Origin: Escherichia coli
GTDB taxonomy: Bacteria; Pseudomonadota; Gammaproteobacteria; Enterobacterales; Enterobacteriaceae
DNA: 64,000 nucleotides
Direction: 5' to 3' (one strand)
Assembly (NCBI RefSeq): GCF_041248615.1
Contig: NZ_CP158426.1
Each line of letters starts with the position of its first letter. The first letter of the stretch is position 1. Shown here piece after piece: positions 1,147-63,842 of the stretch. A model generated the notes under the pieces. That model was not told the origin of the DNA. It saw only the letters and a list, made by a program, of their open reading frames with translations, and did not search any database. The position numbers and the translations under genes are program-made.

Positions 1147-1259
1147 ATATTCATCCCTGAAATGTATTAATGAAATAAACGATATTTTACGCGCAATAAA
1201 TGTTTGGCGCATTAGTTGTTTGAGCGAAAAATATCTGGAAAGCAGATCACAGTAAATAA

Positions 1260-1292
1260 AAAAACCTGCTGGTGAGGCAGGTTCTTTTATTT
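1260..1292. terminator. Bidirectional rho-independent terminator-like hairpin (CCTGCtggtgagGCAGG, flanked by A-run and T-run)
   Basis: The sequence aaaaaCCTGCtggtgagGCAGGttcttttattt is seen directly in the window. Confidence 0.5.
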
Positions 1293-1576
1293 ACTACAGT
1301 GACGCTAACTTGCTGATTGTGCAACATTTCGTACCAACGAATAAATTATAACCATATCCACACTCCATTGCAATTCAGTGAATGAGATTTATAATCCTGC
1401 CCGTTGGGAGGTTGTGCCGGATCGGACCAATTTTAAGTCCTGGCTGCTGGACGGGTGGTGCCGCAGGCGGTGCCCTGATCCGGAGAGCAACGTTTCGTAC
1501 CAACATACGTAAACCAGTATCGACAGGCAGTGTAAGGGTAAGGTGCTGGTGTTGCGCTCCTTAATAAGGAGAGCGG

Positions 1577-20157: not shown

Positions 20158-20430
20158 ATGTCTCATACCATCCGTGATAAACAGAAACTGAAAGCGCGTG
20201 CCAGTAAGATTCAGGGCCAGGTCGTGGCGCTCAAGAAAATGCTCGACGAGCCGCACGAATGCGCTGCAGTTTTACAACAGATTGCTGCTATCCGTGGCGC
20301 GGTAAACGGTCTGATGCGGGAAGTGATTAAAGGTCATCTGACGGAACACATCGTTCACCAGGGGGATGAGCTAAAACGTGAAGAAGATCTGGATGTCGTT
20401 CTGAAGGTGCTGGATTCTTATATCAAATAA
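20158..20430 (+). CDS. rcnR: Ni/Co-responsive repressor RcnR (90 aa, CsoR/RcnR family)
   Basis: Size, position and divergent orientation relative to rcnA. Confidence 0.9.
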
Positions 20431-20520
20431 TTTATTAACGCTATTGTAAAACTGCCGTTTTTCCTCGTTTACAACGCGTGCGCTGGACATTACCATCCTC
20501 CTCTGCGATTTATCATCGCA

Positions 20521-20599
20521 ACCAAACGACTCGGGGTGCCCTTCTGCGTGAAGGCTGAGAAATACCCGTATCACCTGATCTGGATAATGCCAGCGTAGG
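20521..20599 (+). repeat. attL: 79-bp direct repeat identical to 33186..33264, a copy of the thiM TPP-riboswitch aptamer sequence (without the 3' strand of P1) joined to the thiM promoter side
   Basis: Exact 79/79 identity: ACCAAACGACTCGGGGTGCCCTTCTGCGTGAAGGCTGAGAAATACCCGTATCACCTGATCTGGATAATGCCAGCGTAGG. The sequence is the conserved thi-box/TPP aptamer. Confidence 0.85.
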
Positions 20600-20684
20600 T
20601 TGCCAACATTCTGATTAGTATTCATGTGGTTACATTTCTTTTTGTCCGTGTGTAATGCACCTAATGTACAAAAAGAGCGTAAAC

Positions 20685-21986
20685 ATGAGGTACAAAACTC
20701 TTCCATACACGTTTCAAAGAAACGGTAATTACTATCTACAGATTCGGCTTTCGAATGGTCGGATGTATAAAAAATCACTTCTCACTGACAGCTATCGTGA
20801 AGTCTCTGCTTTGATGATTGGTGTTGCTCCGTACATTCCTTTTGTTAAATCATTAGCCATCACAATCCCGATGTTTGATGCCTTTGTTTCAAACCTGATT
20901 ATGTCAAAACTTAGGGCTGTAAAAGTTCCGCTGCTATCACATCAGTCGGTAATTACCCCTGCTACATTCGAGGAACCAGCGACACAAGCCGAACCGCAAA
21001 ACATGCTAACTCTTTCTGATGCGTGGGCTATGTATAAAGCGGAAAAGGGTAAAACATGGACAAAGTCGATCTCAAGGGCGAATGAGCGTTACATGGAAGT
21101 CTTGATGGTTGTCTTGGGAGAGACAACTGACGTAGTTGCGATTTCTAAGCAGGACATCAAGCAGGTGATGGAAGTTGTTGAGAATTTGCCTAAGCGTGTT
21201 GTCCAACCGTATCGCTCAATGAACATCCAGCAACTGATTGAATGTGATGATGTATCACCGAATGAGTTAGTAGGAGTGGAAGCCATTCATAAGCATCTCA
21301 AAATCTACAAATCGCTTTTCAAGACTTTTCTAACAGAAAACAAAGATATTTTGATTAAATCCCCAACTGATGGGGTAGTAGCAGCACCATCTAAAGCAAG
21401 GTTTGGAGCATACAGTTCGGCGGAGATGAAGAAGTTTGTAGAGTGGGCACTTAAGCAGCCAGATGGCTGGCAGAAGTGGATAACATTGTTGTTGGCATAC
21501 ACAGGAGCCAGAAGGGGAGAAATTGCCAAACTGGAAAAATCACAAATAAAATATGATGAGGATAGCCATCGGTATTATTTCCTGATTGCAGAAGGAGGGC
21601 AGGGGAAAACCGAAAATGCTACCCGACAAGTAGTGATACACCCTAAGTTGATCGAATGGGGTTTCATGGAATACGTTGATCGCCAGTGGAAAGAACGGAT
21701 TTTTTCAGAAGTGGCTGGTACAAACATGACGAAGATCGGTAAAGAATTTGCTGATGTGCGTGACCAGCTTGACATTCCGTACTTAGACGATTTTGGACAG
21801 CGGAGGCTTTTGCATAGCATTCGTCATTCTGTTTGCTCTACTGCGATGGCTGGATGGGTAAAGAACATCTTGCATCTGCAACAAACAGTAGGCCATGAGA
21901 AAAGTGGAGGGATCACTAAACGCTACTTACATACGTTCCCACTATCATCAATTTGTTATGTTATTGATGGGATTAGTTGGGTCTGA
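20685..21986 (+). CDS. int: Tyrosine integrase of the island (433 aa from 'MRYKTLPYTF'; the provided ORF starts at 20655)
   Basis: C-terminal catalytic signature 'LHSIRHSV' (H-x-x-R) and '...KRYLHT' (Tyr); directly adjacent to the attL repeat. Confidence 0.8.
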   Translation: MRYKTLPYTFQRNGNYYLQIRLSNGRMYKKSLLTDSYREVSALMIGVAPYIPFVKSLAITIPMFDAFVSNLIMSKLRAVKVPLLSHQSVITPATFEEPATQAEPQNMLTLSDAWAMYKAEKGKTWTKSISRANERYMEVLMVVLGETTDVVAISKQDIKQVMEVVENLPKRVVQPYRSMNIQQLIECDDVSPNELVGVEAIHKHLKIYKSLFKTFLTENKDILIKSPTDGVVAAPSKARFGAYSSAEMKKFVEWALKQPDGWQKWITLLLAYTGARRGEIAKLEKSQIKYDEDSHRYYFLIAEGGQGKTENATRQVVIHPKLIEWGFMEYVDRQWKERIFSEVAGTNMTKIGKEFADVRDQLDIPYLDDFGQRRLLHSIRHSVCSTAMAGWVKNILHLQQTVGHEKSGGITKRYLHTFPLSSICYVIDGISWV

Positions 21987-22129
21987 AACTGCTAAGAATG
22001 ATAGGAAAAGCTACTTAATGATCCTTAGTTTTGGATGAAATTGAAGATTACAAAGATCTTGAGCGAATAAGAGCGTTTTTTAATCAAAAAAGCCATAAAA
22101 ACTTTTCTTGACTGTATATTAACACAGTG

Positions 22130-22146
22130 CTTCTACTATGTAGAAG
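22130..22146. promoter_or_regulatory. Perfect palindrome CTTCTACtatGTAGAAG overlapping a TTGACT (-35-like) element upstream of the nuclease/helicase operon; candidate operator
   Basis: Seen directly. The hexamer TTGACT is at 22110-22115. Confidence 0.3.
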
Positions 22147-22203
22147 AAATCGACATGAAAAATTTGATATGGTAAATTTTATCCATGATAACAAAAAGGT
22201 ATT

Positions 22204-23106
22204 GTGGATATGTTACTACCAATACGAGTTCATAAACGATTTCTAACTTTATTTAAGACTTTGCAAATTGACGATTGCCCACCGCAATCAACTTTAAATA
22301 TTCATGTACTTAATATCGAAAGCAATGAATTTATATACTGTAAATTAGTTGAAGAATTACGTGACATAATAATTACTTATGTACATTCGAATAGAAGGCT
22401 TGAGGAGTTTAAGGAAAGTTATCCTTCGTATAGCCCTAAACCTTTTTTCGAAGCAATACAAAAATTTCGCAATTATACGTCAAACGAAGGTGAGTTAGGT
22501 GAACTGCTTTTATACGCTTTTCTTGAAACAGGACTAAATGCTCCGAAATTACTTTCCAAAATGCAATTGAAAACAGATTCTAATGATTACATTAAGGGTT
22601 CTGATGGTGTACATCTGTTAGAATTAGATGATGGTTATCAATTAATATTTGGAGAATCAAAGCTCTATGCCGATCTTTTAGAAGGTGCTCGAGAAGCGTT
22701 TGATTCTATTTTAGATTTTAAAAGTAATGGAATGGCATTTGAAAGAGGGCTGATAGATACACACGTTATAAATGAAATGGTTTCAGAAGAAGGTTATGAG
22801 AAAATAAAATCAATTCTTCTTCCTTCTTCTGGCGATGATGGGCCAGATCTTGATTTATCCTTTGGTATATTTCTTGGTTTTGAATTGAAAATAGATAGCT
22901 CACAGTTATCATTGAAAAACAAAGAGTTTAGAGATTGGGTTAATGAGTCCGTGAAACAACATGCTACTCGCGTGGTCAGTACGATACGAAGGAAAATTAT
23001 TAATCATAAATTATATGGTCACGAATTCCACATATATATAGTTCCTTTTACCGATATTGATGTTACACGAAAAAAATTAATTCATGAAATGCTAACAATT
23101 AAGTGA
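22204..23106 (+). CDS. PD-(D/E)xK nuclease-like protein, candidate HamA (DUF1837-like) of a Hachiman-type defence system
   Basis: Motif 'HLLELDDGYQLIFGESKLY' (D...E-x-K). Its stop overlaps the start of the downstream helicase gene (ATGA-type coupling). AT-rich island cargo. Confidence 0.5.
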   Translation: MDMLLPIRVHKRFLTLFKTLQIDDCPPQSTLNIHVLNIESNEFIYCKLVEELRDIIITYVHSNRRLEEFKESYPSYSPKPFFEAIQKFRNYTSNEGELGELLLYAFLETGLNAPKLLSKMQLKTDSNDYIKGSDGVHLLELDDGYQLIFGESKLYADLLEGAREAFDSILDFKSNGMAFERGLIDTHVINEMVSEEGYEKIKSILLPSSGDDGPDLDLSFGIFLGFELKIDSSQLSLKNKEFRDWVNESVKQHATRVVSTIRRKIINHKLYGHEFHIYIVPFTDIDVTRKKLIHEMLTIK

Positions 23107-25691
23107 ACACTATGAATGAATTAAATTCAAGTAAAAACATTCATTTGGCAGCTCGTCTTGCAGATGATGCTTTTGAAAGTGCTTATTTTAAAGAAATCAA
23201 TAAGTTTATAAGTGGTTTATACAATTACAGTTTATTTAACTGCGATTCAGATGTTAGTCTCTCCGAGAGTGATAACAATAAAATAGCACACGCTTTGCGT
23301 TTTGCAGATATATTTTCACATTCTTCAAAAGAAAATCATAGATCATGTGCATTTGAAATTATAAGTAGAATAGCCTTATTAAAAAAACATGATCCTTATT
23401 TTAAATTTATAGGTACTGCTGTTATTAATCGGCTTGGGGTTTATGCAGCAGAAAAACTCATATCAAAAGGGGTAAAATTACCCTTAGATAGAGAAGTTGA
23501 TTCTATTATTAAAAAATCAGTTCAGAAAACAGATGAAGATGGAGTATATTTCACTGATAAACAACATGAGTTATACAAACTTTTAAAAAGTAGCAAAACA
23601 ATTAGTTTTGCTGGTCCCACTTCGATGGGAAAGTCATTTGTTATTAATGCATACATTAAGGAAATAACTCTTAAAAAAGAGCTTAAAAATATAGCTTTAA
23701 TTGTTCCTACACGGGCTTTAATAAGCCAAAATGCACTTAAGTTAAAAATTGATATTGCATTGTATAAGAATGAAAGCCCTTATAAAGTTGTTACGACATC
23801 CTACATTATTAATGGTGATGAAAGTAAAAATAAAGGCTATATTTTTATTCTCACCCCAGAAAGGCTGGTTAGTCTCATAAGCACTATTCCTGGACTAATG
23901 ATTGATTATGTTTTTGTAGATGAAGCTCAAAAGTTAACAACAAAAAATGATTCGAGGAGTCTTGTTACTTATTCAGCTATAGAGCAAACAATTAGTAAAA
24001 ATCCTGAGGCAAGATTATTCTTCTCTTCACCTAATTTATCTAATCCTGAAATATTTAATATTTTGTTTGATAGAAAAGACGCTTCGGTATATAGAAATAC
24101 AGAAGGTGCAACTACTCAGAATATGTATTTTATTGATCTTTTAAATAGCAGCTTTAGCTATGTTAATACCGAGAAAAGGACGCTTGAAAAAATAGATGAG
24201 ATCTCTAATACTTACACGAATACAAATGATGTTATCTATAAATTAAATAATGGTAAAAGTAAAATAATTTATTGTGGGGGGATAGAAAGCACGCTTGAGA
24301 GAACACGTAGCTTTATCAATTATCTCAAAATTAATAAGAAAAAAAGAAAGCATTTAAATTTAGAAATATCTTCTGAGATAAGAAACTTTGTTCATGATAA
24401 CTATGAACTTGCAGAAGCCATCAACTATGGTGTTGCTTTCCACTTTGGAAACTTGCCTCAATCGATTCGAGATTTAATTGAGCATCATTTCAAAATAGGA
24501 AATATTGACTATCTATTCTGTACATCAACCCTACTTGAGGGAGTCAATTTACCTGCAAGATCCGTATTTATTCTTACGCATAAAAAAGGCCCCAGTCCAT
24601 TAGAGTCGGTTGATTTTTGGAATCTGGCTGGGAGAGCTGGGCGATTATCTATGGAATTGTCAGGGGATATTTTTTGTATTAGGGATGATAATAAGCTTTG
24701 GAATAAAAAAGCTGTTGATAATATCCTTCTGTCTGACAAAAATAACATTTCATTAAAGCCAAGCTTCTATATTGAAGACGAAAAAAGATTGAACGATTTA
24801 CACCATATAATTACGACTGGTAAAACAGGGAATATTAAAAATGCTGAGTTCCTTAGAACTTTAGGAGATATGATAAGAATAGACACTCTGAGGGATTCTA
24901 AAGAACTTCCTCTTATTAGTTATTTCCAAAGCAGTGGAAAATCAGAAATTTTGTTAAGTGCAGAAAAAAGCACTGAAAATATTACCATGCCAATGAATAT
25001 CCTTTTGGCAAATAGTCATATTGCGATTGATTCGCAGTATCATGCTTTTAAAAAAATAAAAAGCCTTACAGTTAAGGAACTGAAATTATCATGGCAGCCT
25101 ACATACGAAGAAATTAAAGAAAAATTGAATTTGATATTCGATATTTACCAAGTTGAAAAGTTTGCAACAGGTAGAGAACGTCTTTATTTAAATTCAATTC
25201 CATATTATGCAGTATTACTGTTTCAATGGATTCGTGGAAATAGTCTACAGGAAATTATCTCGGGGGCAATTGCTTATAGAAAGAACAAAAGTATATATAT
25301 TAAAAATACACCTGTTCTTTTTGACAGCGAAAACCCAGCTCATTTAACTGCATTAGTTAATGAAACTATAAAAGACATTGAGTTGCGTGTAGGTTACCAG
25401 TTACAAAATTATTTTTCACATTACTGTCAGCTTCTGAATTATGTGTTACAAGGAAATCCAGGGGCAAACTGGTCTCAGTTCATTGAGTTTGGCTCTAATG
25501 AGCCAATAGTATGGCACCTACAAATGATGGGCTTTTCAAGGGATAGTGCAGTTTTTCTCAAGAAGAATTTTTCAAAACATCTTAAACTTGATAATGAAAT
25601 GAATAAACTCATCATAATGGATAAGGAACTGATCAAGCGTTCTTTCAAAAAAGATGGACTACATTACTTAGAAATCCAATCGTTATTATAA
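23103..25691 (+). CDS. SF2 helicase (862 aa), candidate HamB of a Hachiman-type defence system
   Basis: Walker A 'AGPTSMGKSF', motif II 'VFVDEAQKL', motif III-like 'FSSPN', 'TSTLLEGVNLPA' and motif VI 'LAGRAGR'. Translationally coupled to the upstream nuclease-like gene. Confidence 0.55.
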   Translation: MNTMNELNSSKNIHLAARLADDAFESAYFKEINKFISGLYNYSLFNCDSDVSLSESDNNKIAHALRFADIFSHSSKENHRSCAFEIISRIALLKKHDPYFKFIGTAVINRLGVYAAEKLISKGVKLPLDREVDSIIKKSVQKTDEDGVYFTDKQHELYKLLKSSKTISFAGPTSMGKSFVINAYIKEITLKKELKNIALIVPTRALISQNALKLKIDIALYKNESPYKVVTTSYIINGDESKNKGYIFILTPERLVSLISTIPGLMIDYVFVDEAQKLTTKNDSRSLVTYSAIEQTISKNPEARLFFSSPNLSNPEIFNILFDRKDASVYRNTEGATTQNMYFIDLLNSSFSYVNTEKRTLEKIDEISNTYTNTNDVIYKLNNGKSKIIYCGGIESTLERTRSFINYLKINKKKRKHLNLEISSEIRNFVHDNYELAEAINYGVAFHFGNLPQSIRDLIEHHFKIGNIDYLFCTSTLLEGVNLPARSVFILTHKKGPSPLESVDFWNLAGRAGRLSMELSGDIFCIRDDNKLWNKKAVDNILLSDKNNISLKPSFYIEDEKRLNDLHHIITTGKTGNIKNAEFLRTLGDMIRIDTLRDSKELPLISYFQSSGKSEILLSAEKSTENITMPMNILLANSHIAIDSQYHAFKKIKSLTVKELKLSWQPTYEEIKEKLNLIFDIYQVEKFATGRERLYLNSIPYYAVLLFQWIRGNSLQEIISGAIAYRKNKSIYIKNTPVLFDSENPAHLTALVNETIKDIELRVGYQLQNYFSHYCQLLNYVLQGNPGANWSQFIEFGSNEPIVWHLQMMGFSRDSAVFLKKNFSKHLKLDNEMNKLIIMDKELIKRSFKKDGLHYLEIQSLL

Positions 25692-25999: not shown

Positions 26000-26575
26000 T
26001 CAGCGTTTGATGCCGCTAATACTGGCAAGCATTTCTTTCTTCACACGAAAAACTGTAGCCCTGCCGCAATCACATAACTTTGCTATCTCGTCTGGTGTAT
26101 TCTTCCCGGCCTGTAACATATCGATAATCTTGTTATGTAGCTCTTTGTTCTTTTGCTTGCCCTTGTACTTCTTAGCCTCTTTAGCAAGAGCAATCCCCTC
26201 ATTGCGACGAGATGCGATCATACCCCGCTCAAATTCTGCAGCGGCTCCCATCATGGTTAGGATAAGGCGTGATTGTGGGGAATTATCAAAACTCATAGAG
26301 TTTGCAAGGAATTGAACAGTGATTCCACGAGCCACGAGGTTATCAATCATTTCCAGCAAATCGCGGGTATTACGTGCAAGGCGATCAATCGAGTGAGTAA
26401 CGAGCGTGTCACCTTCGCGGAGGTGTGAAAGCAGGTTCAACAATTCAGGTCTTTCGCTGGTGGACTTACCTGATTCTTTCTCTGCCACAATTTTGTCACA
26501 AACAGGTTCCAGCACTGCCAACTGACGCTCAAGATTTTGATCCTTTGTTGAGACTCTCGCGTAACCAAAAATCAT
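26000..26575 (-). CDS. Serine recombinase (resolvase/invertase family, 191 aa)
   Basis: N-terminus 'MIFGYARVSTKDQNLERQ' carries the catalytic Ser motif of resolvase/Hin-family enzymes; C-terminal helix-turn-helix region. Confidence 0.9.
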   Translation of the reverse strand: MIFGYARVSTKDQNLERQLAVLEPVCDKIVAEKESGKSTSERPELLNLLSHLREGDTLVTHSIDRLARNTRDLLEMIDNLVARGITVQFLANSMSFDNSPQSRLILTMMGAAAEFERGMIASRRNEGIALAKEAKKYKGKQKNKELHNKIIDMLQAGKNTPDEIAKLCDCGRATVFRVKKEMLASISGIKR

Positions 26576-26599
26576 TTTCCTGCCCTCACTTACGTGAAA

Positions 26600-26663
26600 A
26601 GTATCATTTGAATTTACTTAATGATACAGTATCATTTAAATGCATTCAACATCTAAATGATAC
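26600..26663. promoter_or_regulatory. res-like recombination site array upstream of the resolvase gene: GTATCAtttgaatttacttaaTGATAC and AGTATCATTTAAATG...CATCTAAATGATACT inverted repeats
   Basis: Repeated TGATAC/GTATCA half-sites seen directly; typical location 5' of the resolvase gene. Confidence 0.45.
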
Positions 26664-27125
26664 TAAACGAGACGAGAAAAGCGAGTATCGTTAGGGAGTA
26701 CCCAAAAGAGATTTTTGATCGTGCGTTTTTTAGTCAATGTAGGGTTAGTGAAAAGTTCAGTACCGAGATCTGAGTTCACGGCATTTTGTCGACGGGGTTG
26801 AACCTGATTAGGCGAACGAGATTTTAAATCAGGCGGAATAAAACAAGTTGTACTTTTATCTGAGTAAAAGATCCCTTTAACTTTTTAGTCAGAAATCGTG
26901 ATACTAGGGGTTTGGTTATTTTGTGTCCTTAAGGCCAGTACTTTTAGCGAGGACGAAAAAACGGCCTACATGAGAACGCTTACAGTAACTTAAGTATATT
27001 ATCCAAAAAGTCACTTAACTTAAATCAATTTGGATGCAAAATCGCCACACTTTGCAAGTGAACACATACCGGGCAACAAGCAAATAAAAAAGGCCACTTT
27101 CGCGACCTTGTACCAGTACAAACAC

Positions 27126-27485
27126 TCATTCAGAACGATCAAGTACCATATATGCTGGCTGACACATGCTGCCCCGCTCCTGTAGCCAGTAGTAATCAAG
27201 ATCGGCAACACGCACGTCCAATCCAGAATCTACACGGTTGATCTGTAACCGTAGCCCTACAGTATCCTTGTACGATAAACCAGATTTAACATTGTATTTG
27301 TACTTAACACCGTTTTCCTGTTCAAACTGTTTAAGGAAAGGCGTCATTTGTTTCTGAATTTCTTTCAAACAAATAACCTCATTATCAATAGCAAAGGGGG
27401 GTTCTGTTTTTCCATCAGGTACAGCAGCCTGTAAATGAAAGGAAGTACTCAACAATAACAGCATTGCAACAGAAGTCTTTTTCAT
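27126..27485 (-). CDS. Small secreted protein (119 aa, signal peptide 'MKKTSVAMLLLLSTSFHLQA'), unknown function
   Basis: Signal peptide followed by a two-Cys mature domain; 43 nt downstream of the membrane protein gene on the same strand. Confidence 0.6.
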   Translation of the reverse strand: MKKTSVAMLLLLSTSFHLQAAVPDGKTEPPFAIDNEVICLKEIQKQMTPFLKQFEQENGVKYKYNVKSGLSYKDTVGLRLQINRVDSGLDVRVADLDYYWLQERGSMCQPAYMVLDRSE

Positions 27486-27528
27486 TTTAATTCCTTATTA
27501 AAGAACAGTACATTATATTTCAATGGAC

Positions 27529-28569
27529 TTAATAACAATATTTTATATTTCCTTCGGGTTTTCTCATGCATTTAATTCCTTCAGGAATATAATCAGTTAC
27601 GGGAGCAGGTCTGGCATCAGGTCTTGAAAGACGATTGGATATAGAAGACAACAGACTGAAAACACACTCATTAAATGATTTTTGATATTTATTTTTTTCA
27701 TAAAAGTACTGCATGGTGATTTTATCTCTTTCGTATTGCAATTCTTTGCCAAGCTGAATCCTATCCATATCAATTCCATTTCTCATAGCATTAAATCTTT
27801 CGTTCAATAAATTAAATTGAGATTTATTCCATTCATTTAAAGGAAATAAAGAATTGTTAAGCCTTTGCCTACAATTAGATTGCTCGATAGCTGACATGTA
27901 TTCTTTCATACTAACGCCAATATCTAAGTATGTGAGTTGTCCAGCAGTTCTATCAACTGAGTTATTAGGGTAAGATTTAATTTCAGTAAGTATTGACTCT
28001 GTTAATACTGCATTTTCTTCTAAATCTTTGCTAATAGTTATTTGAGCTTGTTCTCTTTTATCCTTATCAAATATTGAAATGTATTTCTTTACTATATCCT
28101 GATTAGCTTTCTCGGCTGCTACTAACGCATCTTGAACCTTCTTTTCCGCCGCTTTAACTCGTTGTTCTTCTACAAATTTCGCGTAGTCATCAGTATTTGT
28201 AATGTGATTTTCACGAGCGATAGAAAACTCTTTACTATCTTTAAAACCAAGTTTTTGTGCTCTGGCTCCATCGCTTGAAGATCGGGCAGAACTTGCCACG
28301 AAAGCGAGCACAATGATCAGTACAGGAACCGTATAATTATTAACGAGTTTATAGGGTAAGAACTTCGCTTTAAGCGTACCATAACCCAAAACAGCCCAGC
28401 CTATCGCGGCAGTACTTGCCAGTAGCTGGCACAATCCAGCGACGGAAAGCATGATTACCGACCAGAAGCCTGTACCGACTGCGAAAAGATCACCAAATTT
28501 CTCCATTGACGCAAGGAATAAAAACACTCCCCAAATGCCATAAAATCCTATTTTCAAATATTTACTCAC
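27529..28569 (-). CDS. Membrane protein (346 aa): three N-terminal transmembrane helices plus a long charged/coiled-coil domain, unknown function
   Basis: Hydrophobic stretches at residues ~7-28, 37-62 and 74-95, followed by a Lys/Glu/Gln-rich region; AT-rich codon usage. Confidence 0.6.
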   Translation of the reverse strand: MSKYLKIGFYGIWGVFLFLASMEKFGDLFAVGTGFWSVIMLSVAGLCQLLASTAAIGWAVLGYGTLKAKFLPYKLVNNYTVPVLIIVLAFVASSARSSSDGARAQKLGFKDSKEFSIARENHITNTDDYAKFVEEQRVKAAEKKVQDALVAAEKANQDIVKKYISIFDKDKREQAQITISKDLEENAVLTESILTEIKSYPNNSVDRTAGQLTYLDIGVSMKEYMSAIEQSNCRQRLNNSLFPLNEWNKSQFNLLNERFNAMRNGIDMDRIQLGKELQYERDKITMQYFYEKNKYQKSFNECVFSLLSSISNRLSRPDARPAPVTDYIPEGIKCMRKPEGNIKYCY

Positions 28570-29552
28570 CGCAATTATCCTTTAATAATTTTCCAAATCG
28601 ATGGTTCGTTCTATTTGTATTATCGACAATAATTCGTTTGCCTTTAGGTAGATCCCTTAAAAAGGAATCCCCCCAAAATTTATAGATTAGCAGTTGTACC
28701 ACTCTCACTGTTTTGTCACTCCCATTATCTTCTCTCAGGTCAAAAGTACGGACTTAAAGCCGTCCGTGTTCAGGTGCTCAAGAGTAGCACGCATATCAAT
28801 AAATGATCGATAAAAACGATCAATTAATGGCTTATTGATCGCTATAACCTATCAATGACTATTAATTCAATACAAATCAATAGGTAAAATCGATCAAGAG
28901 GATTCGTCATCCATGAAAGGGGTTATGTATCTGATTTCAATACAGGGAGTATTAGCGATACCATCACGCAAACGCTCTTAAAGCGTAGCTACGGCGTTTT
29001 GTAGGGTTTTTGGTCATTCATGTGTGTCAGTAATGAACATCGCATTCAGGGGCTTCCTGTGCGTTTTGTCCGAAACACCATCATGAAGGGGGACAGATCG
29101 GATCGGGGTCGCTTCGCTCTGGTCAGTACTGGATAGTTCTTTTCCAGTAACTGAAACCGCAGATACCCCACTAAGTACACAAAGGAATTATTTGTAGAAT
29201 AAGTAATGAAATAACAGTCAGTTATGTACTTACTGACAGAACTAAAAACGCGATTAGGTTCGCTCTGTCAGTGACCGAAGGGAACGCAACAGTAGAATCT
29301 AATCCAGCGAACAGTACACGCAAGCGGGTGCTGTTTAATTGTTTTATCTATGTAAACAATGGGATAGCTATCAAGTACTCACTGCGTGAGCACTCTCACT
29401 AACTACCCGAAACAGTTCGCTTGCTTCGCCGCTCCTACTTTCAGGTAGTTAATTCGCTTTCGCTCGTTGTGATGTCCGAAATTTATTACCTATAGTATTA
29501 TAAGGTATTATTTTCCGGACATTTATGTATTTTTATGATGGTGTTCTGGACA
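28570..29552. other. ~1-kb non-coding region with a GATC/ATCAAT-rich AT-rich cluster (28795-28900) and at least six TTCGCT iteron-like repeats in both orientations (29107-29471); candidate origin or regulatory region
   Basis: No ORF of 60 aa or more. Repeats 'ggtCGCTTCGCTCtggtcag', 'ggTTCGCTCtgtcagtg', 'cagTTCGCTtgcTTCGCcgc', 'aaTTCGCTTTCGCTCg' and 'cAGCGAAcagtac'. Four GATC sites lie within 100 bp. Confidence 0.4.
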
Positions 29553-31028
29553 TCATTTTTTGCTTTTTTGTACTTCCTTTTCGTATTTGTTCCACATAGC
29601 CTTTTGCTCTTCGGGACTGAGTGCTGTATTACCACTGGCAAGAAACACCTTGAACGCTTCTAACTCAAGCCCTGGGTTGCGGCTTTTCCAGCGGCGAAAA
29701 CGCTTAGCGTGATTATCATCAAGAGTGAAACGCTTTTGCTTATTCTTTGAACCTTGCGGCCTGCCTCTCGACCTCTGCTCATCATCAATACCGATATCTA
29801 TATACTCAATATTATCTGTAAGAGATCTGGCTTGCCATTCATCAAAAACATAAACAGTCTGTGTTTCAGTACTGTCAAAATCCCTTGAAATTCCTCGTAG
29901 TACGAACTGGTGTAAACTTTCGTACTCCCTCGCAACATGTATCGCCTCGCCGTCAATCTCAAAGAACAATTCGCACTGTTTAGCCTCTGTTTCAGAGGGA
30001 CGCATACAAGCGAGCCAGACGCACGTGAGCAAGTGTTGGTACTGGTTAAACCCTCTGGCATCCGGGCTTATCTCTGTGCCGTTTTTGAGGCTCTGAGAAT
30101 CGCTTTTGTTCTTCGTCCAGTAGAAATCCTGTCCCTCAAGTTTTTTATCAATAAATGAGTATATTTTTTGTACTTTATCAGGGTTATTAGTCTTCCATGT
30201 CTTCGATAGTTTTTGATTTTTTGAGAAGTAATAAACCTTTAATCTGTCTTTGAGAGCTGTTTTTCGTGTCAGTAATCCTCCAAGTTCAGTACTTTCAAAG
30301 AGTTCTTTATTGCCTTTATAGATCAATGAATTTTCGAAATTAGCTCCGAGAAAGGTGATTGATACGTCTTTGTACTTACTGAGATCTTTCCATGCGGTAA
30401 TATTAAGCTGTTCCTTTTTCGCATCGGTAAAGTACTCATTATTCATGATGAACATATCATTTTCGTTAATTGCTGGTAGCTGGTTCAAAATATTCTTCAG
30501 TACTTCCCCTTGTATTTCTGGTTTTCTTTCTGCCGCAATATACATATTTTTATCATCTAATGTCAGTACATTGTGTATTAATGAATTAAGAATTGTATTT
30601 TTTATATTAGTATCACCCTCATTAATATTCTGAAAAGAGTGAAAATTAGTAACGTCGTCAATATAAATATTACAGTCAGATAACAATTCAGGAGGAATTT
30701 TGAAAAACGTTTTATCTGTTATGAGTAATGTTTTATTACTTCCAGATGAAAGAAAGTTAATAACTGAATTAATAACACTTTCATCTTTTGGTACTGTATC
30801 TGTAATTATATACTCGCAATTATTGATTTGCTTTGCTGTCTGCTTAATAAGTTCTTGAGTGTTCTGTACTAAAATATATTTTTCAGTACTGTTATTGATT
30901 ATATTGCATATAGCAGTAGTTTTACCTGAACCACAAGGGGCGGAGACATACTTAAATTTATTATAAATAGGTGTGGGATTAATCATTTGTACACGCTCCA
31001 TATTGATTAATGTAGAAAGGTCAGCCAT
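29553..31028 (-). CDS. P-loop NTPase (491 aa) with C-terminal AT-hook-like motif; candidate Rep/helicase-like replication or mobilisation protein
   Basis: Walker A 'SAPCGSGKTTAI' near the N-terminus; Walker B-like 'IYIDDV'; C-terminal 'SRGRPQGSKNKQKR' (AT-hook GRP core). Confidence 0.6.
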   Translation of the reverse strand: MADLSTLINMERVQMINPTPIYNKFKYVSAPCGSGKTTAICNIINNSTEKYILVQNTQELIKQTAKQINNCEYIITDTVPKDESVINSVINFLSSGSNKTLLITDKTFFKIPPELLSDCNIYIDDVTNFHSFQNINEGDTNIKNTILNSLIHNVLTLDDKNMYIAAERKPEIQGEVLKNILNQLPAINENDMFIMNNEYFTDAKKEQLNITAWKDLSKYKDVSITFLGANFENSLIYKGNKELFESTELGGLLTRKTALKDRLKVYYFSKNQKLSKTWKTNNPDKVQKIYSFIDKKLEGQDFYWTKNKSDSQSLKNGTEISPDARGFNQYQHLLTCVWLACMRPSETEAKQCELFFEIDGEAIHVAREYESLHQFVLRGISRDFDSTETQTVYVFDEWQARSLTDNIEYIDIGIDDEQRSRGRPQGSKNKQKRFTLDDNHAKRFRRWKSRNPGLELEAFKVFLASGNTALSPEEQKAMWNKYEKEVQKSKK

Positions 31029-31370
31029 TCCAGTGTCTGGCCTTTCGTTGTTTTAGTTATTAGTCTTTTTGAGTTGCGACAACTGCAAGAGAATGTTTAT
31101 AAACAAGTGAAATAAGCAGTTTTACCGCCTCAAAAGCTACAGTCAGTTTCGTAATTATTTTCGAAAGCATCGTAAATTTCACTTCGCTATCTTCTATGCA
31201 AAAATTAGCAGCCTGAGGTATTTAATGATTGAGATGTGGCCTGTTGATAAGAGGGTTTGTATTGCTTGTTCTGCTCTTTGTTAATTTGTGACTTATTCCT
31301 TTCACAATGATCGGCTATGTTTGATAACTCTGTTAGGAAATCACCTATGGCTACCATATTGGATTTGCCC

Positions 31371-32276
31371 CTATATTTCCAGACACCTGTTATCACTTAA
31401 CCCATTACTGGCCTGCTGCCGCAGATATTCCCGTGGCGAGCGATAACCCAGTGCACTATGCGGATGCCATTCGTTATAATGCTCGAACGCCTCTGCAAGG
31501 TTCTTTGCTGCCGTTAACCCGTCTGGTTTAGGCATGATACTGATGTAGTCACGCTTTATCGTTTTCACGAAGCTCTCTGCTATGCCGTTACTCTCCGGAC
31601 TCCGCACCGCCGTGTTCTTCGGTTCAAGCCCCAATATCCGGGCAAACTGCCGTGTTTCATTAGCCCGGTAGCATGAACCATTATCCGTCAGCCACTCTAC
31701 TGGAGACGCCGGAAGCTCGTTGCCGAAGCGGCGTTCCACCGCTCCCAGCATGACGTCCTGTACTGTTTCACTGTCGAAGCCGCCCGTAGTGACTGCCCAG
31801 TGCAGTGCCTCACGGTCACAGCAGTCCAGCGCGAACGTGACTCGCAGTTTTTCTCCGTTATCACAGCGGAACTCGAACCCGTCAGAGCACCATCGTTGAT
31901 TGCTTTCTTTCACGGCCACTTTGCCAGTATGTGCCCGTTTCGATGGCGGTACAGCGGTTTTTCGCTCAAGCAACAGCGCATTCTGGCGCATGATCCGGTA
32001 AACACGTTTGGCATTGATCGCAGGCGTACCATCAAGTTCGGCCTGTCTGCGAAGCAGCGCCCATACCCGACGATAACCATACGTGGGCAGCTCTCCGATA
32101 ACATGGTGTATACGGAGAAGCACATCCGTATCATCTGAGTGACGGCTGCGGCGACCATCTTTCCAGTCATCGGTTCGTCTGAGAATTACGTGCAACTGCG
32201 CACGCGACACCCGGAGACAACGGCTGACTAAGCTTACTCCCCATCCCCGGGCAATAAGGGCGCGTGCGCTATCCAC
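31371..32276 (-). CDS. insD: IS2 transposase OrfB (InsD, 301 aa)
   Basis: Translation '[30 protein letters not shown]...' and DDE transposase region. Confidence 0.9.
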
Positions 32277-32599
32277 TTTTTTGCACGCCCGTATTCAACG
32301 GCTTCTTTAAGGAGTTCATTTTCCATCGTTTTTTTGCCGAGCAGGCGCTGGAGTTCTTTAATCTGCTTCATGGCAGCAGCAAGTTCAGAGGCAGGAACGA
32401 CCTGCTCTCCTGCGGCCACAGCAGTAAGACTTCCCTCCTGGTATTGCTTGCGCCAGAGAAATAACTGGCTGGCTGCCACACCGTGTTGCCGGGCAACAAG
32501 GGAGACCTTCATTCCCGGTTCAAAACTCTGCTGAACAATAGCGATCTTTTCCTGTGTAGTACGCCGTCTGCGTTTCTCCGGTCCTAAGACATCAATCAT
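32234..32599 (-). CDS. insC: IS2 OrfA (InsC, 121 aa from '[18 protein letters not shown]')
   Basis: Helix-turn-helix protein overlapping insD in the -1 frame, as in IS3-family elements. Confidence 0.9.
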
Positions 32600-33073
32600 C
32601 TGCTCTCCAATGACTAGTCTAAAAACTAGTATTAAGACTATCACTTATTTAAGTGATATTGGTTGTCTGGAGATTCATGGGGCCAGTCTACATATAATCA
32701 TGTTCATCTTCTAATTCTTTAAATTTTAATAGAGAAATCTCTTCATAATATTCTTTCATTTTCATATAAATCACCTTTTATTTTTTTGTTGTTAACACAG
32801 GTTTTTTTCTGCACTACACATTATAGCACATAGAATTAATTCGTTTCATTTTCTGTCAATGAAATAGAGTAAAGATAAATGCTTTTATAAAGCACTTATC
32901 ACATCCGTTGCCTTGCTATATATAAAAAGTTCTCCAAACTATACTGGTGTATATTTTCCCCATCAGATACAGTTGTTTTTAAACATTACAATGTTGGATT
33001 CTTGGTTCCAAATAAATCGAGCAACTATTAGTGTTTCAAAATGAAGTTGGGAGCTATTCCTTAATTCGTATGA

Positions 33074-33102
33074 GGTACAAAATGGGGTACTCGGTGGGGT
33101 AC
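33074..33102 (+). promoter_or_regulatory. Three direct repeats of GGTAC at 12-bp spacing (aGGTACaaaatgGGGTACtcggtgGGGTACag), ~85-110 bp from the att core; candidate integrase/Xis arm-type sites. A 13-mer ATGAGGTACAAAA (33069-33081) recurs at the int start codon (20685-20697)
   Basis: Seen directly. Confidence 0.35.
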
Positions 33103-33185
33103 AGCGTGTATAAGTGACGTCACCACGGGTAAACTTGCATCGGCGAGCAACTTAACCTAAGCTGACAAAAATTAAGAGAAATGTA

Positions 33186-33317
33186 ACCAAACGACTCGGG
33201 GTGCCCTTCTGCGTGAAGGCTGAGAAATACCCGTATCACCTGATCTGGATAATGCCAGCGTAGGGAAGTCACGGACCACCAGGTCATTGCTTCTTCACGT
33301 TATGGCAGGAGCAAACT
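33186..33317 (+). ncRNA. thiM TPP riboswitch (aptamer plus expression platform) preceding thiM; its first 79 nt (33186-33264) form the attR direct repeat
   Basis: Conserved thi-box sequence CUGAGA...ACCUGAUCUGGAUAAUGCCAGCG; its 3' continuation 'GAAGTCACGGACCACCAGGTCATTGCTTCTTCACGTTATGGCAGGAGCAAACTATG' carries the anti-Shine-Dalgarno/Shine-Dalgarno platform. Confidence 0.85.
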
Positions 33318-34106
33318 ATGCAAGTCGACCTGCTGAGTTCCGCGCAATCTGCGCACGCGTTACACCTTTTTCACCAACATTCCCCTCTTGTGCACTGCAT
33401 GACCAACGATGTGGTGCAAACCTTTACTGCCAATACCTTGCTGGCGCTCGGTGCATCGCCAGCGATGGTTATCGAAACCGAAGAGGCCAGTCAGTTTGCG
33501 GCTATCGCCAGTGCGTTGCTGATTAACGTTGGCACGCTGACGCAGCCACGCGCACAGGCGATGCGTGCCGCCGTTGAACAGGCAAAACGCTCTCAAACAC
33601 CCTGGATGCTTGATCCAGTAGCGGTGGGTGCACTCGATTATCGCCGCCGTTTTTGTCTGGAACTTCTGTCTCATAAGCCAACCGCCATACGTGGTAATGC
33701 TTCGGAAATCATGGCATTAGCTGGCGTTGCTAATGGTGGACGGGGAGTGGATACCACTGACGCCGCAGCTAACGCGATACCCGCTGCACAAACACTGGCA
33801 CGGGAAACTGGCGCAATCGTCGTGGTCACTGGCGAGATGGATTATGTTACCGATGGACATCGTATCATTGGTATTCACGGTGGCGATCCGTTAATGACCA
33901 AAGTGGTAGGAACTGGCTGTGCATTATCGGCGGTTGTCGCTGCCTGTTGTGCGTTACCAGGCGATACGCTGGAAAATGTCGCATCTGCCTGTCACTGGAT
34001 GAAACAAGCCGGAGAACGCGCAGTCGCCAGTAGCGAGGGGCCAGGCAGTTTTGTTCCACATTTCCTTGATGCGCTCTGGCAATTGACGCCGGAGGTGCAG
34101 GCATGA
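33318..34106 (+). CDS. thiM: Hydroxyethylthiazole kinase ThiM (262 aa)
   Basis: Length, position after the TPP riboswitch, 4-nt overlap with thiD. Confidence 0.95.
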
Positions 34107-34903
34107 AACGAATTAACGCTCTGACGATTGCCGGTACTGATCCGAGTGGTGGTGCGGGGATTCAGGCCGATCTTAAAACCTTCTCGGCACTTGGCGCTTA
34201 TGGTTGCTCAGTGATTACTGCACTGGTGGCGCAAAATACCCGTGGCGTACAGTCGGTGTATCGCATTGAGCCTGATTTTGTCGCCGCCCAGCTCGATTCG
34301 GTGTTCAGCGATGTGCGAATCGATACCACTAAAATCGGTATGTTGGCGGAAACCGATATTGTTGAAGCGGTGGCAGAACGGTTGCAACGTTATCAGATCC
34401 AAAACGTGGTACTCGACACCGTTATGCTGGCAAAAAGCGGCGACCCGCTGCTTTCACCTTCGGCGGTTGCTACGCTGCGCAGTCGATTATTGCCACAGGT
34501 TTCATTAATAACGCCAAACTTGCCCGAAGCTGCTGCCTTGCTCGACGCGCCACACGCGCGCACCGAACAGGAAATGCTGGAACAAGGGCGATCGCTGTTG
34601 GCGATGGGCTGTGGCGCAGTGCTAATGAAAGGTGGTCATCTGGATGATGAGCAAAGCCCGGACTGGCTGTTTACTCGCGAGGGAGAACAACGGTTTACCG
34701 CACCGCGCATTATGACCAAAAACACCCACGGCACTGGTTGTACGCTCTCTGCGGCGTTGGCTGCACTACGCCCGCGCCATACAAACTGGGCTGACACCGT
34801 ACAGGAGGCAAAAAGCTGGCTTTCATCGGCGTTAGCCCAGGCCGACACGCTGGAAGTTGGTCACGGTATTGGTCCGGTTCACCACTTCCACGCCTGGTGG
34901 TGA
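34103..34903 (+). CDS. thiD: Hydroxymethylpyrimidine/phosphomethylpyrimidine kinase ThiD (266 aa)
   Basis: Length, translational coupling with thiM, PfkB-like fold motif 'GTGCTLSAA'. Confidence 0.95.
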
Positions 34904-49451: not shown

Positions 49452-49538
49452 ATAAAAAATAAGCCCGTGTAAGGGAGATTACACAGGCTAAGGAGGTGGT
49501 TCCTGGTACAGCTAGCATTTTATGGGTTATGTTTTTCA
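49452..49538 (-). ncRNA. cyaR: CyaR (RyeE) Hfq-dependent sRNA
   Basis: The minus-strand sequence reads GCUGAAAAACAUAACCCAUAAAAUGCUAGCUGUACCAGGAACCACCUCCUUAGCCUGUGUAAUCUCCCUUACACGGGCUUAUUUUUU. This matches CyaR as I recall it, including the terminator hairpin and U-tail. Confidence 0.85.
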
Positions 49539-49624
49539 GCGAAACGGATGATAACCTTAATAAATGCAGCTGTATGTGATCGGTTTCTAAGAATTTTCCA
49601 TCCGGGAAAAATAATCGAAATTAA

Positions 49625-62856: not shown

Positions 62857-63000
62857 GAAACGGGAAAGCCCCTCCCGAGGAAGGGGCCTTAAATAAGGAA
62901 AGGGTCATGATGAAGCTACTCATCATCGTGGTGCTCTTAGTGATTAGCTACCCAGCATACTAAGACTACCAGGGCGGGGGAAACCCCGCTCTACCCTCAC
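62857..63000 (-). ncRNA. sib: Sib-type antisense sRNA antitoxin, copy 1 (coordinates approximate)
   Basis: Sib RNAs are ~140 nt and encoded fully antisense to ibs. A minus-strand terminator hairpin is at 62868-62888. The 5' end is inferred, not seen. Confidence 0.4.
62907..62963 (+). CDS. ibs: Ibs-family type I toxin, 18 aa (MMKLLIIVVLLVISYPAY)
   Basis: AGG Shine-Dalgarno upstream; MMK...hydrophobic...Y pattern characteristic of Ibs peptides. Confidence 0.75.
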   Translation: MMKLLIIVVLLVISYPAY

Positions 63001-63184
63001 TCCTGAAAGTATGCCTTCACGATAAGATTGTCAATCTGCAGGCTTTGCAGTCTGCGATCCTGCCAGCAAATATTCTTTGCGAGACGTTACGCAATAATCA
63101 CACTGGAAACTATTTTATCCGCAAGTCAGCGATAGACTGCATACAGGGCGAAAGGAGGTAAGCCGACGATTTCAGCGGGACGCT

Positions 63185-63328
63185 GAAACGGGAAAGCCCC
63201 TCCCGAGGAAGGGGCCTTAAATAAGGAAAGGGTCATGATGAAGATACTCATCATCGTGGTGCTCTTAGTGATTAGCTACCCAGCATACTAAGACTACCAG
63301 GGCGGGGGAAACCCCGCTCTACCCTCAC
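63185..63328 (-). ncRNA. sib: Sib-type antisense sRNA, copy 2 (approximate)
   Basis: By homology with unit 1. Confidence 0.4.
63235..63291 (+). CDS. ibs: Ibs-family type I toxin, 18 aa (MMKILIIVVLLVISYPAY)
   Basis: Second repeat unit; same arrangement. Confidence 0.75.
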   Translation: MMKILIIVVLLVISYPAY

Positions 63329-63512
63329 TCCTGAAAGTATGCCTTCACGATAAGATTGTCAATCCGCAGGCTTTGCAGTCTGCGATCCTGCCAGCAAATA
63401 TTCTTTGCGAGTCGTTACGCAATAATCACAGAGGAAACTATTTTGGTCACGCGTTAGCGATAGACTGCATTCAGGGCGAAAGGAGGTAAGCCGACGATTT
63501 CAGCGGGACGCT

Positions 63513-63660
63513 GAAACGGGAAACCCTCTCCCGGAGAAGAGGGCTTTTAATAAGGAAAGGGTTATGATGAAGCACGTCATCATACTGGAGATACTCTTAG
63601 TGATTAGCTTCCAGGCTTACTAAGAACACCAGGGGGAGGGAGAAACCTCTCCCTAACCCT
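63513..63660 (-). ncRNA. sib: Sib-type antisense sRNA, copy 3 (approximate)
   Basis: By homology with unit 1. Confidence 0.35.
63564..63623 (+). CDS. ibs: Ibs-family type I toxin variant, 19 aa (MMKHVIILEILLVISFQAY), IbsA-like, with Glu in the hydrophobic core
   Basis: Third, diverged repeat unit. Confidence 0.65.
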   Translation: MMKHVIILEILLVISFQAY

Positions 63661-63842
63661 CACTCCTGAAATTATGTCACTCCGCCCTTAGTGTCAATCG
63701 ACGGCTCTCCGTTCTTGCGAGGCGAATAGCAAAATTTTCTGCGCCGCCGGGCCTAATTCTGAAAGTTTCTTCGTTTGCTCTTATTTCATTATTGCAATCG
63801 GTATGATACCGGGCCTCAATAATTCTCTAAGAAAGGATTTCT

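Follow-up and report, generated by a model that had tools for sequence, protein, structure and literature searches.

We analysed a stretch of 64,000 nucleotides of Escherichia coli DNA from contig NZ_CP158426.1 (the window, to which all positions refer unless another locus is named), in which the gene of a tyrosine integrase, int, directly follows an incomplete copy of the thiamine pyrophosphate (TPP) riboswitch of thiM. We consider it probable that positions 20460-20700 form attL, the left junction of an integrative island of 12.6 kb that carries a Hachiman defence system and is inserted at thiM, and that the integrase belongs to a family using the thiM-type TPP aptamer as its attachment site. 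On this reading the orphan aptamer half in front of int is a by-product of the restoration of the target and not a sensor recruited for int. The coordinates of all features are collected in Table 1.

The window is 100% identical to the chromosome of E. coli NRZ14408. The annotation of the Prokaryotic Genome Annotation Pipeline (PGAP) gives the order rcnA (minus strand), rcnR (plus strand), a TPP riboswitch, the integrase, about 12 kb of accessory genes, a second TPP riboswitch, thiM and thiD.

The direct repeat and the two aptamer copies

The island is bounded by an exact direct repeat, identical at 80 of 80 positions, whose copies are spaced 12,665 nt apart. Between them the content of guanine and cytosine is low, 29-43% over most of the length, as compared with about 50% in the flanks. 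A preliminary description of this DNA had proposed that an island was inserted in the thiM leader, and the exact repeat, together with the empty site in other genomes, bears this out. It had also noted that the left repeat copy ends before the 3' strand of the closing helix P1, which is correct, although the length it gave (79 nt) is one nucleotide short.

Across the 80 nt the arms P2/P3 and P4/P5 and the junction nucleotides are the same in the attL copy as in the copy at attR, the right junction. After ...GCGTAGG the left copy reads TTGCCAAC (RNA UUGCCAAC), whereas the native sequence is GAAGTCAC (RNA GAAGUCAC). The closing helix P1 is broken at attL, with UUGCCA in place of the 3' strand GAAGUC, and no expression platform is present there, the native platform being found at attR. 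The Rfam family TPP (RF00059, gathering score 54.3 bits) matches the left copy at 20522-20617 with 58.0 bits and flags its P1 pairs as non-canonical; PGAP likewise labels this copy a TPP riboswitch. Upstream of it lies the candidate native thiM promoter, and a site of the same TTTACA-17 type is also found upstream of the aptamer in four related loci (L012, L018, L026 and L028).

The integrase family and its distribution

The catalytic domain of the int product was recognised by Pfam (PF00589 Phage_integrase, 3.2e-7, above the cut-off) and by PHROG 1 (2e-25). Its translation displays the catalytic residues within ARRGE (Arg), HSIRH (His-x-x-Arg) and KRYLH (Tyr).

Of 5426 complete E. coli genomes, 221 (about 4%) have a homolog of int, which is chromosomal in every case. 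A blastn search with the thiM aptamer segment gave 5719 places in 5424 genomes, with a median of one per genome and about 295 places beyond one each. K-12 has a single thiM aptamer copy, and the thiM site is empty in about 95% of E. coli genomes. Related islands at the same E. coli site carry other cargo beside int, namely TIR plus NACHT, SIR2 and GmrSD.

Homologs outside the species were collected in a scan of one genome per bacterial species. This gave 32 int homologs of 55-93% identity, from genera that include Enterobacter, Leclercia, Buttiauxella, Pantoea, Erwinia, Citrobacter, Klebsiella and Serratia. A TPP aptamer ending in ...GCCAGCGTAG stands directly upstream of int, in the same orientation, in 28 of these 32 loci, and the distance from aptamer to int is 86-89 nt in 26 of the 28. 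Of the remaining four loci, three hold int fragments and one holds a copy missing its first 19 residues; none of them has the aptamer. The same layout, with about 87 nt between aptamer and int, is found in every E. coli island examined. What had earlier been taken for an unusual regulatory capture is thus the ordinary state of the family, and the arrangement follows from the architecture of the attachment site and not from a one-off event.

The leaders fall into two subfamilies, the second of which has integrases 60-67% identical to that of the window. Other int fragments lie upstream of the aptamer in L004, L011 and L032, so these contexts are the right ends of islands in tandem arrays. In L035 a window-type right end is followed by a decayed aptamer copy and then by a second-subfamily int. 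As far as can be judged from such sequences, the tandem arrays show past repeated integration at the site.

Some further loci are recorded here. Both integrase subfamilies take part in tandem arrays at one riboswitch, as recorded for L008 and L019, which lie 13.5 kb apart on the same contig of Enterobacter nematophilus, and for L035, L004, L011 and L032. L032 holds what appears to be a very small member, with about 2.3 kb from the end of the upstream int to the next aptamer and one or two open reading frames (ORFs). Strain 16F5M1D1 (L003) has a decayed form of the same island as the window, in which int is cut by an IS3 element and the Hachiman genes are lost, with both aptamer copies kept. 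No int homologs were found in phages, and the int matches on plasmids were partial (38-42% identity over 72-75% of the protein). A pattern for the attP junction gave no match in metagenome contigs. A second-subfamily homolog is present on one 21.9-kb contig classed as viral in IMG/VR, IMGVR_UViG_2531839180_000003 (L039).

The probable crossover site

The junction lies at ...GCCAGCGTAG(G)(G) in all 28 aptamer-bearing loci and in five E. coli island types. Measured against the empty site, identity stops on the right at a position that varies by at most 2 nt in all of these loci and island types, while its left edge is variable (AACCAAAC..., CAACC... or GACTC...). Since the right edge is constant while the left edge varies, we infer strand exchange at CGTAG(G), between the 3' strand of P4 and the 3' strand of P1. 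In the second subfamily the junction reads TGGATAATGCCAG-CGTAGTC-CTGGCGATTATCCA, which is a classic pair of inverted core sites with a 7-bp spacer.

We also considered whether the family targets all three TPP riboswitches of E. coli, and this was rejected. The thiC and thiB aptamers of K-12 read CGAAGGGA at the junction position, their P5 also differs, and blastn matches only the thiM type. Given the differences at the junction and in P5, in E. coli only thiM carries the site. A GC-rich palindrome at the junction of most relatives, GGCCGAAATTCGGCC, was examined as a terminator and likewise set aside, having a poor U-tract, being absent from the window and having halves that covary (G...C to A...T); a DNA dyad accounts for it at least as well.

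The right end and the proposed restoration of thiMD

As the repeats on both sides are perfect, the attachment site of the island itself must contain a 72-80 nt segment of the aptamer. We propose that this site consists of a promoter-like block, the 5' 72-80 nt of the aptamer and then, 86 nt on, int. Integration would rebuild an intact thiMD riboswitch, part island and part host, fed from attR, and would leave the host thiM promoter and the orphan P1-less aptamer half in front of int at attL.

The right-end genes of the E. coli islands are on the minus strand, so transcription of thiMD must begin within the last few hundred bases of the island. A block of the form TTGCnn-17-TAnnCT ends 28-29 nt before GACTC at all five E. 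coli attR ends, at 27-29 nt in eleven other loci and at 17 nt in L031; for the native TTTACA-17-TACCAT this distance is 31 nt. In the island block the hexamers and their 17-nt spacing are conserved and the spacer sequence is variable. Every carrier examined has intact thiM and thiD genes. Most simply read, the island would provide a substitute promoter together with the 5' half of the aptamer and so keep the thiMD riboswitch functional.

A palindrome, GCTTGC-N4-GCAAGC, overlaps the -35 hexamer of the candidate island promoter in L036 (about 25019-25034), L037, L038, L011, L022 and L032, and might serve a regulator of the island or the host as operator. In other island types at thiM the minus strand holds, about 200 nt from attR, a small HTH_73 (PF24718) gene (L036 24642-24881, L037 21959-22165, L038 22336-22581) that may encode an excisionase or regulator. 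At the position of this gene the window-type island holds an ORF of 74 amino acids that is unrelated to it. This ORF is intact in the near-identical island of strain PapRG-06-3 (L002 11418-11642, minus strand) and is split in the window by an IS3-family element that is found only in the island copy of the present strain.

The int leader

PGAP places the start of int at 20685, 86 nt past the repeat, and the thiM promoter and the P1-less aptamer point into the gene, as the preliminary description had it. An in-frame ATG at 20655 was considered as the start and is unlikely; it has no Shine-Dalgarno sequence, is missing in L007, L009 and L037, and is not the start used by PGAP. A terminator between the repeat and int had been named as a feature that would speak against read-through, and our scan of the plus strand from 20300 to 22300 found no terminator-like site.

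The 13-mer ATGAGGTACAAAA occurs exactly twice in the window, at the int start codon and at 33070-33082, the second copy having previously been placed one base off, at 33069. An exact 13-mer repeat within 13 kb is unremarkable alone; its placement at both island ends is remarkable. The repeats share the motif RGGTAC, which stands once over the int start codon and three times in the P arm, at 33073, 33085 and 33097, in a 12-nt phase; a close variant, TGTACAAAAAG, is present at 20666. In the 266 nt beside the island ends the motif is counted four times, where the window-wide count predicts about 0.07 (Poisson p ~3e-7); it is repeated in both arms and absent from the core. Equivalent end repeats are present in the other E. 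coli island types L036, L037 and L038. Such a pattern is typical of arm-type integrase sites, and the RGGTACA repeats are probably binding sites for the arm-binding domain of the integrase. The earlier suggestion of an arm-type site over the int start codon fits well with this, as the 13-mer belongs to a motif repeated at both island ends. It is reasonable to suppose, as had been suggested, that the integrase may regulate itself through these sites, and other integrases are known to be autoregulated in this way.

A conserved hairpin is also present in the leader, in which the Shine-Dalgarno region and the AUG of int are predicted to pair with the upstream leader. Its inverted repeat has an outer part TCATG/CATGA and an inner part CTTTTTGTC/GTACAAAAAG; in the second subfamily a hairpin is found at the same place with another sequence, CCGTTTTGT...ACGAAATGG. 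Covariation was seen for 5 of 23 predicted pairs in the first alignment and for two in the second subfamily, most pairs being invariant, and only three of these seven covarying pairs sit in stems over the Shine-Dalgarno sequence or the AUG. The fold z-scores of the leaders of twelve relatives ranged from 0 to -3.6 and were below -2 in eight of the twelve.

For a transcript from the thiM promoter the bases of the start region (-13 to +3) are predicted to be unpaired with a mean probability of 0.12, versus 0.57 for a transcript starting 25 nt before the AUG, and six other loci follow the same trend. Most likely, transcripts from the thiM promoter would enter int yet be poorly translated. The output of int would then be set by the hairpin and by the integrase on its own arm sites, and not by thiamine.

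Alternative explanations

That the repeat is due to chance, or to a local rearrangement unrelated to site-specific recombination, is hardly conceivable, as 80 of 80 identical positions surround an int-bearing segment of low GC content, the site is empty in about 95% of E. coli, and the same junction is found in 28 loci. The preliminary description had also raised the possibility of a full regulatory model, in which the thiM promoter drives int, the truncated aptamer binds TPP, and integration and excision respond to thiamine. The promoter, the arms P2-P5 and int are indeed collinear with no terminator-like site between them, and this layout is conserved family-wide. P1 itself makes no direct contact with TPP (PMC10578472), and imposing the ligand-binding arms costs a similar amount in the two contexts, 8.0 kcal/mol at attL versus 6.3 kcal/mol in the native one. 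However, in thiM, thiC and thiB the binding of TPP is transmitted through P1, the linker and the sequestering stem (PMC10578472), and attL has neither the 3' strand of P1 nor the linker nor the expression platform, which are all found at attR; this leaves thiamine control of int without a visible route. The predicted int hairpin overlaps none of the pairings in competition with the aptamer, and it takes the same form in the free fold as in the fold with the aptamer arms imposed. No pairing between the aptamer and the int start region common to the leader subtypes was found. The search for aptamer-leader duplexes gave long unspecific pairings with a single clear signal, the core dyad of the second subfamily, which is uninformative as to a switch. 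A possible replacement for P1, GCAACC (20518-20523) with GGUUGC (20598-20603), was treated as chance; this helix is confined to the present island type, is absent from L002, L036 and L037, and is unused in the predicted folds. The conservation of the layout, for its part, is already explained by an attachment-site and int module inherited as one unit. We regard the full model as very unlikely. A thiamine-controlled integrase would be notable if true, and the sequence gives it no support. A broader version is also improbable, though not to the same extent: int would be fed by the right-end promoter of the island when the element is free or in tandem and, when integrated, by the host thiM promoter through a possibly TPP-binding orphan half, so that int output would report both the integration state and the thiamine status while thiMD is under a riboswitch with a mobile-element 5' half.

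Two accounts of int expression do without thiamine. The gene could be promoterless and transcribed across the attachment site, from the right-end promoter in the circle or in arrays and from the thiM promoter once integrated, in which case the exchange of promoters would sense the integration state alone. We give this a limited chance. It agrees with the lack of a sigma-70 site of at least 9/12 matches in the 86-nt leader (the best candidate has 7/12), with a promoter-like block that always lies about 110 nt upstream of the junction in either form of the element, with an orientation and spacing conserved in 28 of 28 aptamer-bearing loci, and with second-subfamily leaders in which no internal promoter is apparent by eye. 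Less easily reconciled with it are the conserved hairpin, whose predicted effect is to make the int start region inaccessible in long transcripts specifically, and the promoter-like sites TTGACT-17-TAATGC, inside the leader of many relatives, and the weaker GTTACA-16-TGTAAT at 20629-20656 in the leader of the window, on account of which int may have an internal promoter. Such a weak promoter in the P' arm is the basis of the other account, in which the hairpin silences outside transcripts in the manner of the IS10 fold-back and the integrase on the repeats autoregulates. In its favour, the candidate -10 follows the 5' arm of the hairpin, the 3' arm of which spans the Shine-Dalgarno sequence and the AUG; the predicted accessibility rises as given above when the transcript starts 25 nt before the AUG; and repeats would be found near position +1 of that transcript as well as over the AUG. 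Yet this internal promoter is weak and has no counterpart in L007, L009, L037 or the second subfamily, the covariation of the hairpin is sparse, and a protein-binding DNA dyad is an equal alternative; we keep this account as a tentative one.

Several observations weigh against our preferred reading of the region as attL of an aptamer-targeting island. Both aptamer copies in the E. coli islands have the native thiM sequence, so the sequence cannot tell which of them was brought by the island. The island-borne promoter matches the sigma-70 consensus weakly (6-7/12, and 6/12 for the copy in the window) and was missed by a standard scan. Given the similar folding cost, the orphan half could still bind TPP. 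The hairpin of the window has a modest z-score of -1.7 against shuffled sequences, and because most hairpin pairs are invariant, an inverted repeat acting at the level of the DNA would explain them equally well. The functions proposed for the promoters, the arm-type sites and the hairpin are all read from sequence. Finally, the present island copy may be immobile, since the insertion sequence interrupts the small right-end ORF, which would matter if this ORF encodes an excision factor.

Cargo and other features of the window

Next to int lie the adjacent Hachiman genes, of which HamA was recognised by Pfam (1.2e-62), and HamA and HamB by PADLOC (2.4e-120 and 8.3e-296, respectively). They are followed by a backbone that consists of a resolvase, two proteins of unknown function and a helicase-like protein. 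This backbone (26000-31028) recurs with 85-97% identity elsewhere on the chromosome in many E. coli strains, where these copies adjoin other defence-type genes (a STAND ATPase, an AAA ATPase and a type III restriction Res), and may be a separate mobile or shuffling module. Full-length Rfam matches to ordinary E. coli RNAs were also obtained in the window: three tandem Sib antitoxin RNAs (62892-63697, minus strand), CyaR (49457-49542, minus strand) and an OrzO-P antitoxin RNA (1258-1331, minus strand).

Table 1. Features at and between the two island junctions, in order of position in the window
Feature	Position	Strand	Basis or remark
Candidate native thiM promoter TTTACA-17-TACCAT, sigma-70-like, 9/12 matches	20468-20496	+	
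attL repeat copy: thiM TPP aptamer from P1 5' strand to P4 3' strand, without P1 3' strand	20520-20599	+	
Inferred strand-exchange region CGTAGG	20594-20600	.	Constant right edge of identity with the empty site
int leader, P' arm of the attachment site	20600-20684	+	Length 86-89 nt in 26 of 28 loci
Conserved hairpin pairing the int Shine-Dalgarno region and AUG with the upstream leader (predicted)	20622-20688	+	
Arm-type-like repeat AATGTACAAAAAG	20664-20676	+	Kept as RRGGTACAAAAAG in the leader alignment
Arm-type-like repeat ATGAGGTACAAAA, overlapping the int start codon	20685-20697	+	
int, tyrosine integrase, 433 amino acids	20685-21986	+	Pfam, PHROG 1, PGAP
Hachiman defence system: HamA (DUF1837) 22204-23106 and HamB (helicase) 23103-25691	22204-25691	+	Pfam, PADLOC
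Serine recombinase (resolvase family), island backbone, also in related islands	26000-26575	-	
Two backbone proteins of unknown function	27126-27485, 27529-28569	-	
ResIII/DEAD helicase-like protein, backbone	29553-31028	-	
IS3-family insertion sequence with 9-bp target duplication	31360-32687	-	PGAP; comparison with the island L002, which lacks the insertion
P-arm repeats: 13-mer ATGAGGTACAAAA, then GGGGTAC and GGGGTACA	33070-33108	+	
Candidate island-borne promoter TTGCAT-17-TAAGCT, now before the thiM riboswitch	33135-33163	+	
attR repeat copy, 5' part of the working riboswitch	33185-33264	+	
Intact thiM TPP aptamer	33187-33283	+	Rfam 71.2 bits, P1 formed
thiM, intact	33318-34106	+	
thiD, intact	34103-34903	+	

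Comparison with known systems

In full-text searches of the literature we found no report of a riboswitch as an integration target. A survey of defence islands in the E. coli pan-genome lists rcnR-thiM in a supplementary table only, as a non-hotspot with the mobile-element type 'None', and the family described here would explain why this defence-island site was listed without a mobile-element assignment. Should the reading be correct, the conserved RNA-coding targets of site-specific integration, which include tRNA, tmRNA and small-RNA genes, would extend to riboswitch aptamers, and an element of this kind must supply both a working promoter and the 5' half of a ligand-binding sensor. In about 4-5% of complete E. 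coli genomes the expression of thiMD would then depend on a riboswitch made up partly of the element and partly of the host; thiD is required for thiamine synthesis. The islands would also offer a natural system for studying how far the TPP aptamer tolerates an exchange of its 5' half, and how integrases are shielded from or coupled to outside promoters.

The closest parallel is with islands that target tRNA and tmRNA genes (P4-like), as far as these are described in Williams 2002, cited in PMC10121019. They share with the present island a conserved, structured, RNA-coding target that the element restores with its own copy, as well as a long direct repeat, int at one end, arm-type repeats, tandem arrays and defence cargo. 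The aptamer remnant at attL parallels the displaced 3' fragment of a tRNA gene after the insertion of an island. Unlike the targets in that account, the one found here is a cis-regulatory mRNA leader, a riboswitch aptamer, and not a stable RNA gene, and the part replaced is the 5' part with the promoter and not the 3' end. For this reason the displaced fragment would keep a live promoter that points into int. Prophages also integrate in small-RNA genes, such as rybB (hotspot 29, PMC10121019) and ffs (PMC12540744). There, too, a short non-coding RNA locus is the bacterial attachment site, but the RNAs concerned are trans-acting or structural, unlike the thiM aptamer.

Regarding the layout of the integrase gene, IntS of KplE1 and Int of P4 are said to autoregulate through arm-type sites that overlap the int promoter. 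As in those systems int adjoins attL and repeated arm-type-like sites lie over its start region, while the putative site in the window overlaps the start codon and not a mapped promoter. In IS10, the translation of transposase from outside transcripts is reportedly inhibited by fold-back. The int hairpin would resemble this in that the inverted repeat is predicted to pair the start region only in transcripts begun upstream of the element's own transcription start; it differs in that the hairpin here is a predicted one, and the internal promoter is uncertain. Finally, integrases specific for dusA reportedly place their elements within the 5' end of this gene, which receives a new 5' end from the element. 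The thiM islands share with these elements the integration at a 5' end and the supply of replacement 5' sequence together with upstream signals. In dusA the restored part is protein-coding, whereas here an RNA ligand sensor must fold with a 3' half encoded by the host. The mechanism would be that of the tRNA and tmRNA islands and of the elements that restore a 5' end; the difference lies in the class of the target.

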